64,000 nucleotides of DNA from Podarcis vaucheri (taxonomy: Eukaryota). The notes under the pieces are model-generated. The model was not told the DNA's origin and ran no database searches. It saw nothing but the letters and a program-made list of their open reading frames with translations. The position numbers were made by a program, and so were the translations under genes. The stretch lies in assembly GCA_965113315.1 (NCBI GenBank), contig OZ220369.1; one strand, written 5' to 3'. This document shows positions 828 to 12,956 of this stretch, in pieces (positions within the stretch are counted from its first letter, which is position 1; the number at the start of each line of letters is the position of its first letter).

Positions 828-992
828 CAGGGCAGAGAGCGATATTGCAGGATTTATTCTGCACCTCAGGCCCCTTGCAGGCCTTTCCGCCGTGCTGTGG
901 AGCAACGCATTGCCGCATTCTGGTCCGCGACCCTTGCCCACAAGTCATCGAGCACAGACTCCAGGGGGACCAATCCTCCCATAGGCCGTGAA
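828..992 (-). CDS. ADGRB2: ADGRB2 exon encoding thrombospondin type-1 repeat 2
   Basis: [55 protein letters not shown]. 165 nt, acceptor gtgttgcag|, donor CCTG|gttagt, phase 1-1. Confidence 0.96.
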
Positions 993-3956
993 CTGCAACA
1001 CAGCACACAGCAATCATGGCTGGGCCTCCATTTCAGCCAGGGAGGGGAAAGGCATGGGCTTGGGAGTAGCAGGGCAGGAAAGGCGTATCGGGGGTACAAA
1101 GAAGGTTTGCACAGGGTCAGTGGAGGAAAAATGAAACAGAAAAAAGGAGTAGTGCTTCGCCCTATCTTCTGAGGATAGAACGCAAAGCAGCTGGTCTGAG
1201 ACGCGGGGTGCAGAGGTACAGGCACATGACTATGAGTAGCTTTCTACTTATAAGGCTTAACATTATGAAGATCTTTCTGCTTATATATCATTGCAAGAAA
1301 GGCTGGTGAATTAGATGATCTGACAAATCCCATTCAATGCTGGTGTCTTGTTTTGTTTTTGCTTTTTTGAACCCATTACAGTGAATACCCAAAATGTTGC
1401 CTGAGGGAATTCAGGAGTGGATTCAACCAGGAACCCCAATTTCAATTCCCAACATCTCCACATTGGGCTGGGAAAGATCCCTGACTGAAACCCTAGAATG
1501 CCAATACTTGGTTGTAGAAACCAGTGTGTGACTGGGTAAAAAGGAAGTTATCTTTTCCCTAAGGCAACAACCCAACTCTGGCCAAAGGAAGGACTGCAAA
1601 GAGACAAGTACACCAGCCAAGGAAACCTCTCATTCAGCCAGAGTGCACCATGTGACATTGCCTGACCTTATAAAAGCTGCCAGATCAAACTAATTTATCG
1701 GCTTGGGCAAATAGAGTTCAAAGCTGCTCCAGTGTTTCTGTGTGAGACTCTTGTCCAGCCCTCTCCCTGGATCTCTAACCATTTCAAGAAATGCTTCTCA
1801 TCTTAAATGTATCCATGGAATATCCAAACTGTATGAAGTTTCAATGCTAGTCAGTCCTAGTTGACAAGGTCCAGTTGATCAGAACCCATATTTGCTAGTC
1901 TGTCTACTGAGTTTCTCTAGCAAGTCTATCCAAATGGGAGATGTGGCCAAGGTGACATCATTCTCTGTGGCAGCTCCTAAGTTGTGGAATTCCCATCCCC
2001 ACAAAGGTGTGCTTGACACCTTCATTGCTTCATTGTGCAGCTTCTGTCACATATGGAAGACACACCTCTTTGCCCTGGTTTTTGAAATTTGAGATCTTAT
2101 GTGCCAGGTACATAACCCCTGAGTGCTTCAGCCCCCCAGCATTCCCCATGAAGGGGTCAGGTATCCACAATTTTTTTGTGCCAGGGTCGTATGCATCCAA
2201 CGTCAGCACGTCCAATGTCAGCACATCCACTGATGTCTGTGTGTGATGTCAGCATGCTGCAGGGGCATGCTGATATCAGGTGCACACGTTGGTGGGCTTG
2301 CTAACATTGGGCATGCATGTACGCCCATGGCATGCATGACCCTAGGCACCCACAGTCCTGGGTCCAAGCTGGCAGGCCTGCTTGAGCTATATAGTGATCC
2401 AAACTGGCTGTGATTGAAATTTGTTTCAAACTTTTTTTAATCTTGTATTTTACATTGCTATGACCCACCCCGGAACCTTCTGGTGAAGAGCATGTAATAA
2501 TAATTCTGATAAATAAGTAAGAGATACGTTGTCTCTATTATGTGCTAGGAAACATCTTTCCCAAGGCATTTAGTTGCCTAGTGTCAGAAGGCAGAATGCT
2601 GAATTATCTGGACTTTCCACCTGCCCACAAAGACAGTTTTTATCTTCTGTCGCATTCCCCCAAAGTCAAATCAGTGCTCTGTCATTTCAAGAGAGCAGCA
2701 GAATCCCCATTACTGAAAAATAGAATACATTTTGCTTCCCCTCCTTCCCTGTTATGAAAGTGCACAGCTACATAAACAGACATCGGAGCTTTATTACGCC
2801 CTCCGTTCTGCTGTCTAGTCCAGCCTGGGTGGAAAGAGGAACAGACAGGCAGTCAAACTCTGTTCTAAAAATGGTCGGCATACATCACGAGCACATCCTC
2901 TTCTTGATTTAAGCTTTGCAGAGAGCTGGCTAGAAGTGTTCAGTTTTTTAAAATGCAACTGGAATTTATCTGCTCTAAAAGAAACTGAAATCTGAAGTGT
3001 TCTACCTTTCAGGGATAACATTGCAAGATTGACAAAAATATAAATTTGGCTTTTTTAAAAAAGCTGGCAAAATTAAATCTTTTTTGAGCATAATTGGGTG
3101 AAGCATGACAACAAGAAATGTACCAGAAAATGAACCTCTCTACACTTCTGTAGCAGGCTAGATTGTTGTACAATTAAGCAAATTGTGCATGCAATGTGCA
3201 ACAATTATCCAGATCTGCATAAATGTATAATACAGCCTGTGCTTTTGAATGGGGACAAGCATGATGTGGAATTAAGGCAGTTGCACATGCAATCCATGAC
3301 AGATACTCCTGTCTGCATTCATTTATGCTCCAGTTGATACTTATGAATGAATGTGGGGGTGATGCACAACGAAAATAAGCTCAGTACTAAAGCACATCCT
3401 TTGCATTCAGAAGGTGTCAAGTTCAACCCTTGATGGCATCTCTGGGTAGGCCCGGGAAAGACTCCTGCATGAAACCCTGGAGAGCCATTGCCACTCAGTG
3501 TAGAATAGCTTTTCCCAAGTTGGTGCCCTCCAGATGTTTTGCACTACCACTTTCATCAGCCCCAGTCAGCACGGCAATAGTCAGGGACGGTGGAGGCTGT
3601 AGGGGACATTTAGAGGACACCATGCTGGGGAAGGCTGGTGCAAATAATACTGAGCTACAAGGGCCAGTGTGACTTAAGGCAGCTTCCTATGTGTATGCAA
3701 TGAGTGACAATGATTCATATATGCACTGCTGCTTTTGCTCCTGAATGGACAGCATAATGCCTGCAGTTGGCTGCCACCAGGGGATGGTGGGTTTCACCTG
3801 CCTTGCCCCACACGCTTCATAAGGCGATTGCTTTATGGATATTCTAGCTTAGCCTATTAGTGAGCTGTACGCTTGCTTAAATGTTAATATATGTTAAATG
3901 AATGGTTAATTGTTGATTATTATTGTTGCAAGTTTTTTTTTGGGGGGGGGAGTTAG

Positions 3957-5440: not shown

Positions 5441-8400
5441 AGATCATTCCAGCAACTGTTCCTGATGGGATCAAGTGAGCTTTGGACTATGGTGTAATTT
5501 TAAAGCACATTCAAAGCGCCATCCTCCACTAAGAATTGTAAGCACTGCACTTTATTCCTCACAGAGTTACAATCCTACACAACCATTAACAAACTGCCCA
5601 GAATTATTGGAGGGTGGAAATGTGCTTTGAATGCATACCCAGCCAAAATTTGTGGTCCTTTTGATCTATTTTTCCAGGCCCATTTCTGCCTCTTTCCACA
5701 AGCTTTCAAAATAGAGGAAAGTAAGTGTAAATGTTAAACTGCCATCAGTTGCTACCAAACCCATGTCTCTTGGATGTGAGATCACAGCAGCCATTACAAA
5801 TAATATAAAAGAGGGAGATATTTCCCAAGATAATTTGGGTTTTGCCTTGACAGTGGATGAAGATACACAGAAAACTGATTTCCATCATCCAGTTCCTCCC
5901 AAGCTGATAACCCTTTGGAGAACACTTGAACAGCTTCCTGGTCAAACTTAATCAATGCTTCATGTATCATTAAATCCATTCACAATATCTTACATTCAGA
6001 CTTGCAGATGTTTTAATGATTGAAATTAGGAATGGAGTATGGTAGTTCATTTTCTCTTTGCAAAAACCTGGGGAAACTGTCTTTGAAGTCTGCTGCATTT
6101 TCCAAAAATTAATATTCAGCTTTGCTAATGTAACAACTAGTAGATTTTCTTTTTAATTCTGATCTCTCTGCCTTACAAGGGACCCAGGAGTTGTGCTGAT
6201 TAGCGCTCAAGACAGATATTAATAATTACTGGCTTTTAATATTTTCAAAGGGAGAGAGGACATTGTTTGGTTATACCAGCATACTTTGGGGAAACCTGAG
6301 ACCTTTTGTGACGTGCAGAAGCCAGTGTAATGGGCTTTTACAAGTAGGGAGTGATAATTGGGCTTGCTTCACATTTCAATTGTAAGCCTGTCTAATTCAC
6401 ACTTCCCATAACAATATGCAAACCAAAGCACAGCTATCTTTTGAAATTTGCACTTCTCTAAATTTTGTGATGCTGATTCCAACCCCAAAATGTATGTATT
6501 AGGGAAAATATGCATAAAATGCATATATTAGTGAAAACAATATGCAAAAATGCAGTTTCAAAAATACGTGTGTTAGGCAAAATTGCATACCAAATGTATT
6601 AGGAGAAATGTGCAGTAAGATGCTGGTGGATTTTCATAGGGACTTTTAAAAAAATTACCAAAAACACAGTTTGTTCTTCTGATCTTTTTGTTCATACACC
6701 CCCCTTTTTTCTTGGATTTGGTTAATTTCATGCCTGAGGAAACAAAGCAGCTACTTTCTAATTTCCAGCTAATCCAACGTCCATTCCTGTGTAAATTGTT
6801 CCTTGCTCCCCCCTTTTTTTTCTAATATGCCTATTGGATGCTTTTTGCTGTTCTGTGTAATTTTCTCCAGAATCTAAATATGCTTTCTGGATTGTTTATC
6901 CATTGAAAGATTCATGAGGTGAAACCTAAAAACAAGATGAGGAATTATCTTTCACCTCCAACAGGCCAACAAGAAATTCAGGGATATCTAGCCTTTGATG
7001 AGTTGAGATTAAACAGAATGATGTGGAGGGGGGAAAACAACTTTTATACAGATATATAAATATTTCTACAATGACCTCCTGAGCTCTCTCGATTCAGCTT
7101 TGTTCAGTGTTTTCATGCTGGTGTTAGATTTTTCAAGCAGATAGTGATCCATCATTGATTAGCTGTCATGGGCTCTGAATGCTAATTAATGCATTTCAAC
7201 TCTTCAACCTCCTTTAAATCAAAGATACTAAAAGCACCACAGTTTTCCAAGGCATGCAAAAGCCAGCACGACTTGAAAAGAAGAAGGAAGCCCAAGGACA
7301 CTTTCAAAAGCGTGCCTAAAGTAAATATTCTTATTTTTAAAAATGAGCATGTCAATTAAGTATGTATGTAGCACCAGAGTTCTGAAACCTGCAACTGCAG
7401 CATGTCATGCTAGAGATGGCCACTGACTCTGATGGCTTTAAAAGACAATGAGGCAAAGTAACATTAGAAGAATCTTCTGGATCAGGACAATGGTCTATCT
7501 AAGCCAGCATCCTGTTCTCACAGCAGACAACCAGATACCAGTGTTAGAAACTGAGATATGAAAGCTAAGAGCTAAATGGCTCCTTAAACCTAGGTGATGG
7601 GCACAACAATGGAATGTCTAGGCACACTTTTTAAAAACAAGAATACAAAGCTGAAAATGAATGAACTGCAGCTAAAATATTATGTTCATTTTTCACATAG
7701 TCTAGTCCTTCCCCTGCCCACCCCCCTAATATTCTTAAGAGGGTCTCTTCTCCTGTCTTCAGAGACTAACTGGAAGTGGGGAGATAGAAAAAGGTCCTCC
7801 TTTCCTTCCCCTCTGCAGTTTTAATCTGAAATTTTAGGTGCAGTGCTGTGCCCAGAGCTCAGAAACTGCTCACACTAATGAAATTCCCTGCCACAAAATG
7901 TGCCTAGAACAATGGGAGTTTCGAACACTGCCAGATACTTGTGGGAAACCCACAAGCAAGACCTGAGCAAAAGAATATTCTCCCCTCCTGCAGTTTTGAG
8001 CAACAGGTATTCAGAAAGCCTTCTGCCTATGTTCATGGAGGCAGAGCATGGCCATCATGTCTAGTAGCCATTGATAGCCTTCTCCGCCAGGAATCTGTAC
8101 AATCCTCTTTTATAGCCATCCAAACTGGTGGCCATCACTGCCTCCTGGAGTAGCAAGTTCCATAATTCAACTATGTGTTGCATGAAGAAACACTTTCTTT
8201 TAACTGTTCCAAATCTTCTACTATTCAGCTTCATTGGAGGCAAAACTGGGTGCACCAGGAACTTATCGAGGGAAGAATTTGGATCTGAAGAACTGAAACC
8301 TTCCTAGTCCCCTGGCATGCCCACCAAAATGAGGGAGGTGGGGATATATCAGCCATGCAGCTGGAATGAGCATTTATCCTCCCAGTGGAAGCAAGGAGAG

Positions 8401-9137
8401 GGAAATTGTAAAATTTCCACCAGCCGGGGGAAAAGCATTGGAAGAAGGGAAGAGAAGACTCCCACCCTCCCTTCCTGTGCCTGGCAAGGCTTTCGATATC
8501 TTTGATATCCCTTTGGCTCTTTCTCAGCCTAGAGGCAGGATGTCTCCCAGCAGTGGGGCTGCTCCTATATTCCTGGGAATGACCCACATTGAACCTCATG
8601 GGAATTGCTTCTGAGTAGGCATGTGTAGGACTGCAGTTTTGGTAATGTTTCAGGTGTGTGCGGGATGATGAAAGGCAGTTTCTAAGAATTTTTCAGGTGG
8701 GGGTGGTGATCCTTGTTCTTTTTGGATTACAACAGCAGCAAGAACAACAACAGCCTTGGCCCCACACTTTGAAGTGTGGTTTGGCTTGACTTTACTCAGC
8801 AGCTCAGTTCGATGCCAAACCACCCATTATGAAGGGAAACCCATAATTTTATATTTATTCATTTATTTATGGCTGTATTTATTGCTGAATGAAACAAAAG
8901 CAGGCTGGGGAAAAGGAGCAACAGTGCCGGGGTCAGATGTTTCACTCTTTCACCTGACAACCCCATAATCTCAAACTCACCTCCAGCTGCTGCCTAGCTT
9001 GCATTTTCCCTCACCAGGGTAAAGGCAGGGGAGGGAGGGAGAAGAGAGATTGAGAAAGAGGGGAGAGGGTTAAGCATCCCTTCCTCAGCACCACTGCCCC
9101 CAATTCAGTATCATCCTGCCTGCTTTTAAGGCAGCCA

Positions 9138-9505
9138 TGTGGGAAAATGATTGCTTGTACATAAGAGCATGAGCAGAGTTCTTATTATTGCAGAGTGATT
9201 TTACAGCACGAGATATTGTTAAGAGCATGATGAGCACGTGAACACCTCATGCTAGACTAATGATTGGCTCACGTAGCATAACACTCTCTTTGTCTGTGTG
9301 GGCAAGGGCAAGGTTGCATTCCTTTGATTGTTACTTTTGAGTACCAGGCAGAACAAGCGCAGTGCTGGAGGAGAGAGGATGATTTATTTCTTACTGCACA
9401 CAATAAACATGGCACGGCTGAAGCCAAAGCTTCTTCTTCAAGTCATCTTGGTGTGAGACTGATTTCTTACTGATTTTCTTACTGATGTCGAGCTGGTTCT
9501 CGACA
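9138..9505 (+). repeat. 5' LTR (368 bp)
   Basis: TG...CA termini, ATTGG (CCAAT box) near 9264, AATAAA at 9402-9407, directly followed by the PBS. 9421-9505 is repeated at 10232-10306. Confidence 0.88.
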
Positions 9506-9507
9506 AT

Positions 9508-9524
9508 TGGTGCCCCGTGTGAGG
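9508..9524 (+). promoter_or_regulatory. Primer binding site complementary to the 3' end of elongator tRNA-Met (second, 14-nt copy at 9564-9577)
   Basis: TGGTGCCCCGTGTGAGG is the reverse complement of CCTCACACGGGGCACCA, the recalled 3' end of vertebrate elongator tRNA-Met(CAT). It lies 2 nt after the LTR-terminal CA. Confidence 0.85.
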
Positions 9525-9669
9525 CTGATTTTCTTACTGATGTCGAACTGGATTCTCGACATTTGGTGCCCCGTGTGTTTGATTCTGGACTTCGCGACGT
9601 TACGGTCTTATCAGCGCTCATCTCGCCCGGCAAGGGTTTCAGACGCGTCCTTCATCCTTTTTTAGGATC

Positions 9670-9678
9670 CCGGTGAGT
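9670..9678 (+). promoter_or_regulatory. Retroviral major splice donor in the leader
   Basis: CCG|GTGAGT lies about 26 nt upstream of the gag ATG, the typical position. Confidence 0.6.
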
Positions 9679-9698
9679 GCTCCCTTACTTTTGCCATT

Positions 9699-10337
9699 AT
9701 GGGGCAGTCTCTCTCTCCACCACAGAAAAAGCTTTTTGAAGACCTTAAATTTCTTTTGACCAGCAACAGCCTTCTCGTCTCAGATGCTGATCTGAAGTCC
9801 CTTATAGAAGCCTTGGATACCCACTGTCCCTGGTTTCCTCAGAATGGGAATTATCATTTAAAAGACTGGGAAAAAATAGGACAATTTTTCCAAAACCATC
9901 CTCTGCTACCAAGCCAAGCTGAAAACCTGGGCAACAGGCTGCGGGAGCTGAAGGCAAGAATAAAAGACCCTCTTCCAGTCCAGCATGCTGAGCTTCAAGC
10001 CACCAAGGAACACGTCAAGAAAAAGGAGATCCTCCTTCAGAGGTGGCAGACCAAGCACGCCTTGACCTTGGCAGCCGGGGAGAAGTTACTTGACGTGGCA
10101 AACCCCGAGGCCAGAATTGCCCTACAGCTCAAGATGACGCATGTGCAAGAGACCTGGAGCAAAACCCAGCTTCAGCTGGAGAAGATCAGAAAGCAGCTTC
10201 AGCGCACCCTGCAGACGTGGGAGAGCTGCAAAAGCCAAAGCTTTTTCTTCAAGTCATCTTGGTGTGAGACTGATTTTCTTACTGATGTCGAGCTGGATTC
10301 TCGACACAGCCATCCTATGCATGCTGACTTGGAGTAA
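9699..10337 (+). CDS. Chimeric open ORF (212 aa): Gag matrix (aa 1-71) + nesprin-2-like spectrin-repeat segment (aa 72-180) + U5/flank-derived tail
   Basis: MGQSLS myristoylation motif. ...LKFLL...HCPWFPQNGNYHLKDWEKIG is the typical betaretroviral p10 matrix motif. It is followed by a helical spectrin-repeat sequence (LTLAAGEKLL, QETW, TWESC, KDPLP). Expression is unknown. Confidence 0.6.
   Translation: MGQSLSPPQKKLFEDLKFLLTSNSLLVSDADLKSLIEALDTHCPWFPQNGNYHLKDWEKIGQFFQNHPLLPSQAENLGNRLRELKARIKDPLPVQHAELQATKEHVKKKEILLQRWQTKHALTLAAGEKLLDVANPEARIALQLKMTHVQETWSKTQLQLEKIRKQLQRTLQTWESCKSQSFFFKSSWCETDFLTDVELDSRHSHPMHADLE
9912..10238 (+). pseudogene. SYNE2: Intronless, circularly permuted retrocopy of two SYNE2 (nesprin-2)-like exons
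   Basis: KKEILLQRWQTKHALTLAAGEKLL...KQLQRTLQ (65 aa) and TWESCKSQ+AENLGNRLRELKARIKDPLPVQHAELQATKEHVK (42 aa) align without gaps to recalled human nesprin-2 NKEIHFQRRRTTCALTLEAGEKLL...KQFQSTVE and TWDQCEKKIKELKSRLQVLKAQSEDPLPELHEDLHNEKELIK, but in permuted order. Confidence 0.85.
10232..10306 (+). repeat. Truncated 3' LTR (approximately U5 only)
   Basis: Near-identical to 9421-9505. No PPT, U3 or AATAAA precedes it. Confidence 0.9.
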
Positions 10338-11554
10338 GCCCTGTTGAACATCCTTCTGCGTAAACACGCACAGGATTGTGCTGGAAGTAAAATTCTGTAT
10401 ATAGGGAAAGCCAACACTGTGCTCTTGTTTTGGACCACAATTCCCATCATCCTTGACCATTGGCCATGCTTTCTGGGGCTGATGGGAGCTGGAGTCCAAG
10501 AGCATCTGCAAGCCACTGTGGTTGGCTACCCCTGCTAAATCTGTTTGGGAGATGCAATCACCCAGCTCTCAAAATAAGGGTCCACTTAAAGTAAGGTGGT
10601 TCAATGCACGGCCCTTTTGTGCCCCCTACCCAAGCCCTCACACTGCCTTCCCAAAGCTGAGTAAGTGAGGTGCTGGGCTTTGGAAAGGAGGTGTGAGGGC
10701 TCTGACAGGGTCCTAGAGTCCTCCATGCTCCTTCCCAAAGCTTAGTTAGTGCTTTCCCAGCTTTGGGAAGGAGGTAGGAGAGCTTTAGGACCCTGGGATG
10801 TGTGTGTCAAATTTTGGCCTCACTCCCCCACCCCCGCCCTGCAGGACAAGCCCTGCAGGTTCAAAGTACTCTTGTGGCTCACTTGGTAAGGAAAGTTGGG
10901 CTGCCCTGTGGTAAAGGATTCCTGATACACTCACTGGCTCAAAGGAGAACAGATTCAGTTTCTACACAATTTTGCATTACAGTATGTCCTTTTAATGGAA
11001 TGGGGCATTGATCAGGCAGGAGAGATGCCTTGTTGCACGATGGATAAAATACTCTTTAATTAAACAGGGCACATTAAAAAACGTGTGGCAAATTTACGGC
11101 AAGCTGTTTTAGTCATTTTTATTTCATTAATACTTCACAGTACTTATGGGTTATGGCTGAATTGGCTTTATAACTAATTAAACCTATTAAGTGTCTCATC
11201 CTTGCGAACCAGAATTGAACCTGTCCTTGGGGGTGGGGCGGGGCGGGGTGCCGAATGGGTTACTAAATCTTCCTTGGGACTGAACTGGAAGTGACAGAGG
11301 CAAAGCTAAATCGAAAACAGAACAGAACCAAATATTTCAGAGGATGTTTATTCCTGCTTCTAAGAGTGCAGCCACATTAGCATATGCATGTTAATAATGC
11401 CAGTTGGAATGAACATTCTGGGAATACAAAACAAAGCGCGATGACAGACAGGCATCTCTCACGAAAGCAACCTGACACAACGAAGGAAGACGTAACAAAG
11501 GGGTGGAAGGAAGGGGAAACAGCAGCAAGCCCCCTCCCCATTTGCCCCATCTAC

Positions 11555-11719
11555 CTGGGCAGGTGGCGGTATTATTGCATATCCGGGTCTCCCGCAACAA
11601 CCCGCTACATAGTGTCCCGTAAGGCGATGAGACGCAGGAGCGAGTCCGCACCTGGGTGCCTTGGCCGCAGGTCAGTGAACAGACGCTCCACTGGGACCAC
11701 TCCTCTGCTGCAGGGTCTC
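11555..11719 (-). CDS. ADGRB2: ADGRB2 exon encoding thrombospondin type-1 repeat 1
   Basis: [54 protein letters not shown] has the WxxWxxCSxTCG and RxRxC motifs. 165 nt, acceptor ctttcccacag|, donor CCAG|gtagat, phase 1-1. Confidence 0.96.
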
Positions 11720-12956
11720 CTGTGGGAAAGAGGGAAACACGCACACAAGCATACAGACACAGAGAAAAACTGGTTCAGCCACCTCCAGAACAGACGGAAG
11801 ACCTGAAAGTAGCTCTGGTGCTGTGCCCACGCACCTAGGGCTGGACAAATCAGGCTATTTCTGGTGGGCATAACTTCTGCTGGTGTTTGAGCATCATTCC
11901 ATTCTGTTCTCTTTCCACATTAATCTGTGTATGTGTGTGCATGTTTTTTTTAAGAGCATCAAACATTTTGTGCAAATGTGTGTTCAAAATACTTATAAAA
12001 TGTATTTTCTCTCAAGATGTCCATTCCCATTCTCTGTCAGACCTCTGGGGTGTGCACTGACCACAAGATGTGGTTCAGAGACCAAATCAGTGCCTGATTT
12101 AGAGTAATAGAATCAGAGAACTGTCTAGCTGCAAGGAACCCACAGGGTCATCTAGTCCAACTAGTTGCCCTTGCAGGAATGACAGCTAAAGAATCCCTGG
12201 TGCATCTAGGCCAGTATTGATTGATAGCAATAGCTCTCTAGGTTTCAGAGGGTCTCTTCTTGCCCTACCCAGAGGTACCGGGGATTGATCCTATGAGCTT
12301 TGGTATGCAGGGCAGATGCTCTACCGCTCAGCTATGGCCAAGCAGCCATGTATGTGTAAGGTTCAGAGCTGAAGTAGTGCACAGAGCAGCAAGCAAGCAA
12401 GCACAGTGTTTGGAGGAGGCTGCCACAGGCAAAATGTCTATCCTAACTGAAACAGCCAACTCAGAAGAGAGAAAACTAGCAAAGCACATAGAACAGACAA
12501 GATCAACATCCCTCCCGCAAAGCACTCTGGCCGGAGGGCCTTGGCAAATCCTTTTTGTGTGTGGATGGACTTGTTTTTAAAAATTGCTATATTTGTATTG
12601 CATTGCACTTTGTATTTATTGTTGCTGTTAAATCACTCAAGATTTATTTTTGTGGGGAAACAATGCACAGAGTGACTAACAGACAAAGATAGAATCCCTT
12701 CTGATTAGAAGTAAGATGTGTCAGTCACAAAAACGCACAAACAATCTGCCTCACCCTCTCCCCACCCTGGCAATTTCCATATATTGTATGGGAAAATTGG
12801 GGAGAAACATTGCAATTTTTGCAGATCACGTTATCCGCAGTTCTGTTTGGTACCAAATTTTCTAATTGCTCACAAAGCTTTGCGGGGCCCCAGTTTTGGT
12901 TCAGAGGGATTTGAAGGGAGCTCAGCCTTGGATAACTCCAAAATAAGCCCAATTTC

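Follow-up and report, generated by a model that had tools for sequence, protein, structure and literature searches.

The window analysed here comprises 64,000 nucleotides of the lizard Podarcis vaucheri (C26:34906001-34970000). Its host gene is ADGRB2, which is encoded on the minus strand and whose first coding exon shows 100% identity to a cluster that takes its name from a wall lizard. Antisense within an ADGRB2 intron lies an endogenous retroviral (ERV) element at positions 9138-10306. The intron is delimited by an upstream TSP1 exon at 11538-11738 (minus strand; span of a tblastn match) and a downstream TSP1 exon at 829-993 (minus strand), in agreement with the first-pass annotation of this DNA. 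The element is flanked by a 6-bp target-site duplication, CAGCCA, at 9132-9137 and 10307-10312 (plus strand, as are all element features given below). A complete 5' LTR of 368 nt, likewise reported before, occupies 9138-9505; it has the order U3-R-U5, the ends TG...CA, an AATAAA motif at 9402 and a long U5, which we designate type A.

Downstream of the LTR, an open reading frame at 9699-10337 comprises 212 codons plus a stop codon. As stated earlier, it is intact, and its translation starts with MGQSLS, i.e. with an undamaged MGxxxS motif. The translation contains the junction peptide QNHPLLPSQAENLGNR and is composed of a gag matrix part (codons 1-68, 9699-9903), a linker (69-71), a part derived from the nesprin-2 gene SYNE2 (72-180, 109 codons) and a tail of U5 and flanking DNA (181-212, 32 codons). 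The matrix assignment is based on Pfam, on sequence matches to PDB entries and on a structure model: Gag_p10 (PF02337) covers residues 13-67 with an E-value of 3.3e-11, and the closest solved structures are the matrix proteins of M-PMV and MMTV. Since the Pfam and PDB matches stop at residue 67-68 even in intact gag proteins of the family, they cannot reveal a truncation, and the model was used instead. It predicts four helices for the family matrix, the last one at residues 72-86; the matrix part of the chimera would end before this fourth helix and thus retain helices 1-3.

The origin of the captured piece was determined by a search of the whole assembly with positions 9890-10260. The only full match was the window itself, so that the search for further copies, which had been proposed before, gave a single one. 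In addition, two pieces were found in reversed order on C1 (11.226-11.228 Mb); these are consecutive exons of SYNE2. The best of 17 matches is named nesprin-2, and the captured residues correspond to 5491-5597 of a 6666-residue nesprin-2, i.e. to its rod region. A homologue search with the upstream exon alone gave none, and a search across all proteins gave nesprin-2. The proposed source SYNE2 and the proposed fusion of gag with a host gene by retroviral capture are borne out. The designation "spectrin repeat" is correct with respect to the origin in the nesprin rod, but the piece consists of two exons in reversed order and matches no Pfam family; accordingly, the Pfam comparison suggested with that designation yielded Gag_p10 but not Spectrin.

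The two exons, A (195 nt) and B (126 nt), have canonical ends, are both of phase 0 and sum up to 321 nt or 107 stop-free codons. In the gene, A precedes B. In the window, nucleotides 18-126 of exon B (9911-10019; C1:11228129-11228237, one mismatch at 10002) are followed by the complete exon A (10020-10214; C1:11226393-11226587, no mismatch) and, after the normal A-B splice, by nucleotides 1-24 of exon B (10215-10238). The B-to-A seam at 10019/10020 is located exactly at the GT donor of B and the AG acceptor of A. This back-spliced exon order, which was overlooked in the first-pass annotation, is the real finding at this locus. The insert has a length of 328 nt, which is one unit of 321 nt plus 7 nt, and contains one mismatch; the 7-nt overlap falls within an 11-nt stretch (10228-10238) that matches the viral R region. 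Neither sequence from exons other than A and B nor a poly(A) tail is present. The single difference, at 10002, replaces Ala by Thr; Thr is found in nesprin-2 of Zootoca and Ala in four of four Podarcis proteins, and this base may be a CpG variant, either standing or recurrent.

Judged by this arrangement, the SYNE2 template was probably a circular RNA consisting of exons A and B. Inverted repeat pairs in flanking introns promote back-splicing, and the parent gene carries such a pair: an inverted intronic repeat of 145 nt with 85% identity, whose arms lie at distances of 167 nt ahead of A and 293 nt beyond B. A scan with 500-nt flanks and a threshold of at least 100 bits gave a signal at 9 of 544 positions in 30 kb of the parent gene, all nine of them at the A/B pair, and at none of 1224 positions in the window. 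With 1000-nt flanks this control is less clean, as 15 of 1204 window positions reached at least 100 bits and 47 at least 60 bits. Note that a LINE-type ORF of 1036 open codons, which we take to be RTE/Bov-B-like, is located on the minus strand just after exon B (C1:11228560-11231670; L021:6560-9670) and that one of the two repeat arms is formed by its 3' end. The SYNE2 circle may owe its existence to the insertion of a young LINE.

The same B-to-A junction can be explained by a linear SYNE2 mRNA. The last 8 nt of exon B recur at the end of exon Z, which lies upstream of A; among 21 pairs of exon ends, this is the longest identity. A reverse transcriptase that had copied B and A and reached the end of Z could have jumped via these nucleotides to the end of B, which yields an identical junction and likewise predicts a stop near nucleotide 18 of B. 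In this context, 4 of 24 sequencing runs (X1, X3, X16 and X17) were examined. Linear mRNA is the form present in X16 and X17, two runs whose kind we guess to be RNA and which stem from another species: a contig of 6053 nt in X16 contains A and then B at consecutive positions, and contigs of X17 show the normal order as well. Among the listed contigs of both runs none has the order B to A, although contigs of this kind cannot show absence. The linear route is in line with a cautionary remark in PMC4897178, namely that a non-colinear junction does not necessarily require a circle. However, the back-jump requires one extra jump, its site is only one of 14 exact matches of at least 8 nt within the local seven-exon piece, three of which are longer, and it does not predict an inverted repeat that brackets exactly A and B. 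We therefore consider the linear template unlikely. Even smaller is the chance that the template was a linear RNA in which the exons recur (A-B-A-B), transcribed from a SYNE2 allele with a tandem duplication or made by trans-splicing. On general grounds, such an RNA would carry a B-to-A junction at the exact splice sites, but none of our results points to it. A and B are each found a single time in the parent locus and in the assembly, they are consecutive in the X16 contig, and this template does not predict a copy whose length comes so close to one unit. Thus, the two-exon circle is the template assumed in the following.

The viral parts of the element show several irregular seams. The 5' LTR shares 99.7% identity with the solo LTR L037 and 99.5% with the LTRs of L029, L031, L032 and L036. 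It is followed by a first primer binding site (PBS1, 9508-9525), whose 18 nt are a perfect complement of the 3' end of tRNA-Met(CAT) including CCA, as given by the tRNA genes L064 and L065. Its tRNA-perfect tail exists in none of 21 parsed family copies, and we read PBS1 as a sequence copied from the primer tRNA itself. An additional U5 fragment of a short type, designated B, follows at 9517-9563, entered via a match of 8 of 9 nt between the PBS tail and U5. Next comes PBS2 (9564-9577), in which 14 tRNA-like nucleotides are fused to the PBS-like leader repeat of the family; none of 20 such family repeats is tRNA-perfect. Among 40 scored candidates, no other shows this PBS-U5-PBS order. A later insertion of a second LTR was considered as a source of the doubled U5 and PBS and was rejected: the unit as a whole is bounded by one duplication, and no other exists at the inner seam.

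The leader at 9578-9698 is rich in CpG and carries a splice donor at 9672 and overlapping upstream ORFs (uORFs) starting at 9485 and 9540. Its earlier description as CpG-retaining is valid as regards the observed/expected ratio of 1.09, but family copies are equally rich (11, 11, 11 and 8 against 11 in the element; four of four checked). Leader and gag are 97-98% identical to the type-B copies L024 and L025; the values are 85-89% for most copies of the long type and 94% for the long-type copy L026. Gag identity to the family stops at 9903. The 7-nt linker that follows (9904-9910) is untemplated: it does not occur in the circle, and 14 copies contain just one 7-mer match, which is at chance level. 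At the 3' end, the element possesses only an R remnant and a type-B U5 (10228-10306); U3, polypurine tract and AATAAA are missing, whereas family copies have a polypurine tract and U3 at this place. The start and the end of R in this family were inferred. The 3' viral part overlaps SYNE2 by the 11 nt mentioned above, a length found in 8 of 2000 shuffles. The internal and the 3' U5 bear common type-B marks, in contrast to the type-A 5' LTR, and the ends recognized by integrase are intact.

This order of segments fits one faulty reverse transcription that involved two viral RNAs and one circle. We used the standard steps of reverse transcription, as summarized in PMC12789967, as a frame for the reconstruction; a precedent for recombination between copackaged ERV RNAs is given in PMC8662619. 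A particle would have held two viral RNAs, one of type A and one of type B, together with the 321-nt SYNE2 circle. Minus-strand strong-stop DNA made from RNA B would have landed on the circle instead of the viral 3' end, by means of the 11-nt R match. Reverse transcriptase would then have made one circuit, passing the A-B splice and subsequently the back-splice, and would have halted at its starting point owing to RNase H cleavage at the primed site. It would have returned to RNA B within gag, adding the 7 filler nucleotides, and would have copied the leader. The resulting strand lacked a polypurine tract and would therefore have taken plus-strand strong-stop DNA from RNA A. The tRNA-copied tail of this DNA could have paired at U5 (8 of 9 nt) and been extended through U5 and tRNA; a next pairing at the PBS-like leader repeat would give the order LTR-PBS-U5-PBS. 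Finally, integrase would have inserted the product in the normal way with a 6-bp duplication. The order of the strand transfers is a reconstruction from a single molecule. The product is unable to rebuild an LTR.

For comparison, 12 family copies and two solo LTRs as well as 14 further leader regions were used; parsing of primer sites started from these 28 loci, of which seven were dropped (two solo LTRs, five unparsed), leaving 21. In all 21, the PBS matches tRNA-Met at just 15 of 18 nt, and none of 20 copies has a perfect second PBS-like repeat in the leader. Other elements that are primed by tRNA-Met and have perfect primer sites do exist in the genome. Of 44 tRNA-Met pattern matches, 32 were examined with ARAGORN, which called no tRNA among the first 12 and two among the next 20. 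Near-identical sequences with a tRNA-Met-like 3' part in L050, L051 and L040 were not called; they are possibly tRNA-derived repeats. According to its p10-type matrix, the TG...CA LTR and the 6-bp duplication, the family appears betaretrovirus-like (class II). Its matrix resembles the betaretroviral ones (M-PMV, 1bax and 2f76; MMTV, 4zv5 and 5i27; PF02337) in sequence and in the predicted four-helix fold. Betaretroviruses are usually primed by tRNA-Lys; in contrast, the primer of this family is tRNA-Met, and the chimera, unlike a betaretroviral matrix, keeps only three helices.

A first look at the genome gave 354 LTR candidates. The family is very young; its copies L024-L035 are short, with internal regions of 3.0-4.1 kb, and gag is open for 342-356 codons in 9 of 11 copies having a gag start. 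Among 11 family copies, no further capture of host sequence was conspicuous. One stretch is present only in L024 (2511-3784), where it lies within an ORF of 545 codons, and in L034 (2689-3653). L035 contains three LTRs and two gag starts in tandem and looks like a compound or tandem provirus.

The insertion is, by sequence identity, very young: the insert has one mismatch in 328 nt, the 5' LTR is 99.7% identical to its relative, and the two LTRs are identical in 6 of 10 family pairs. Run X1, which comes from the best-matching species and may be the assembly's own sample, contains an empty-site joint that connects 9131 with 10307, so that one target site is left (depth 45.7; short side 23 nt). 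The same run contains a contig across the back-splice with a depth of 49.2 (flank 85.9); its short side is 28 nt, which is below the tool's 31. As X1 holds both the empty and the filled allele, the insertion appears to be heterozygous in this run and not fixed. In run X3 (DNA, a third species), exons A and B lay on different contigs, each unbroken, and the listed contigs, which cannot show absence, included no joint of the empty site. Several short repeats inside 1.2 kb might raise the suspicion of an assembly artefact. Against this stand the perfect 6-bp duplication and the intron-free, splice-exact host piece; moreover, the read-derived X1 contig agrees with 9972-10047 without any difference, including the element-specific base at 10002. 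The probability of an artefact is thus practically negligible, and the locus is a real, young and unfixed ERV recombinant with a back-spliced SYNE2 insert.

It had further been suggested that the ORF might represent a nascent functional gene, i.e. that an expressed, membrane-anchored matrix-nesprin mini-protein fulfils a function. The full young LTR, the gag ATG in a strong Kozak context and the MGxxxS motif agree with this proposal, and leader-gag sequence of the family is present in the presumed RNA run X17 of a related species. For positions 9880-10340 no RNA data set was listed, a result that has no bearing on silence. On the other hand, two uORFs of 63 and 41 codons precede the ATG, a splice donor is located 27 nt before it, and an AATAAA is situated within the captured exon and none at the 3' end of the element; the next poly(A)-like signals follow downstream at 11059-11177. 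Domesticated gag-derived genes are fixed, whereas the empty-site joint exists in X1 (one run, short side 23 nt). Nor does the open frame need selection, because gag is usually open, the exons are in phase, one frame in three fits the gag-SYNE2 junction and a tail of 32 codons is open in about one of four cases (2380 of 9129 random starts). A caveat raised together with the proposal, namely that youth and a one-in-three chance suffice to explain the frame, has thus been confirmed by the 9 of 11 open gag copies and the stop-free exons. With one change in the SYNE2 part and, in comparison with four copies, one synonymous and two to four non-synonymous changes in the matrix part, substitutions are too few for dN/dS. 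When the SYNE2 circle is read round (window 9912-10238), the frame never stops; it is a speculation that the parent circRNA encodes endless helical repeats.

A model of the chimera, predicted from the single sequence with low confidence (pLDDT 66, pTM 0.41), places a SYNE2 helix (71-87) in the slot of matrix helix 4. Foldseek aligned 86 columns of this model to the MMTV matrix with an E-value of 0.015; at a threshold of 0.001, neither the chimera nor the family matrix model gave a match. The placement weakly favours a folded anchor, with no whole repeat left: if the helix completes the matrix, a two-helix hairpin of the repeat remains. In this low-confidence model three helices were predicted for the nesprin part, which matched no Pfam family, and no spectrin was among the Foldseek matches listed. 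A translated matrix-nesprin protein that stems from an in-phase circle and whose host helix replaces matrix helix 4 is, in our estimate, very improbable, and the chance that the mini-protein is functional is just as slight. The open frame is most likely a by-product of a neutral dead end.

Taken together, we regard the locus as a probable retrocopy of a circRNA that was captured by an ERV and is a neutral dead end. Acutely transforming retroviruses carry in-frame gag-onc fusions with spliced host sequence. Like these, the chimera combines in frame a myristoylation-competent gag N-terminus with spliced host sequence; unlike these, it is a single copy, lacks the polypurine tract, the 3' U3 and the poly(A) site for helper-driven replication and has no signalling or growth-control domain. 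A further comparison concerns LTR-mediated retrocopies, as described in the main text of PMC5131818 (Tan et al. 2016). In both cases, host RNA stands in place of internal viral ORFs, in sense orientation, one seam shows microsimilarity (here 11 nt) and the other de novo bases (here 7 nt), and copies are often in frame while young. However, that text implies both LTRs and further rounds, whereas the 3' end of the lizard copy is an R remnant plus U5: the switch occurred at R itself, which leaves a 3' LTR without U3 and makes the copy a dead end. In the main text of PMC5131818, the term "circular" is not used.

Pseudogenes originating from circRNAs are reportedly tied to ERVL elements in mouse by later work. 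In the original description (Dong et al. 2016, PMC4897178), copies of mouse circRFWD2 adjoin MMERVK10C-int, the circRNA source is known from expression data, the copies have differing mutation loads, and the authors call the mechanism mysterious. The lizard copy shares with them the reversed exon junction, the restriction to exons of the circle, the absence of a poly(A) tail and the LTR context. It differs in that it is near-pristine, unfixed and exactly one lap long and has kept all viral seams, and in that we infer its circle. It thus offers a testable route from circRNAs to pseudogenes near LTRs, namely capture at the first strand transfer with a lap limited by RNase H, and adds to the phenomenon, with a single locus, a squamate example and an allele that is still segregating. 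No publication of a one-lap capture at this step was found, with most subscription journals lying beyond our search and the supplements of PMC5131818 possibly holding similar cases. We lean towards the view that the element is a near-pristine record of germ-line ERV particles carrying circRNAs, in which a short R-like match makes the circle an acceptor for the first strand transfer and copying is restricted to one lap by RNase H. If this is true, a class of one-lap, back-spliced inserts that end in a bare R-U5 should be findable. Two practical points follow. Genomic back-splice junctions of this kind can fake circRNA calls. Moreover, in-phase circles of repeat-domain genes are open by construction; hence captures will often resemble intact fusion genes without selection. 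As a minor observation, the window contains at 10624-10795 two adjacent, mutually related imperfect inverted repeats with arms of 34 and 37 nt, which are probably the relic of a small transposon.
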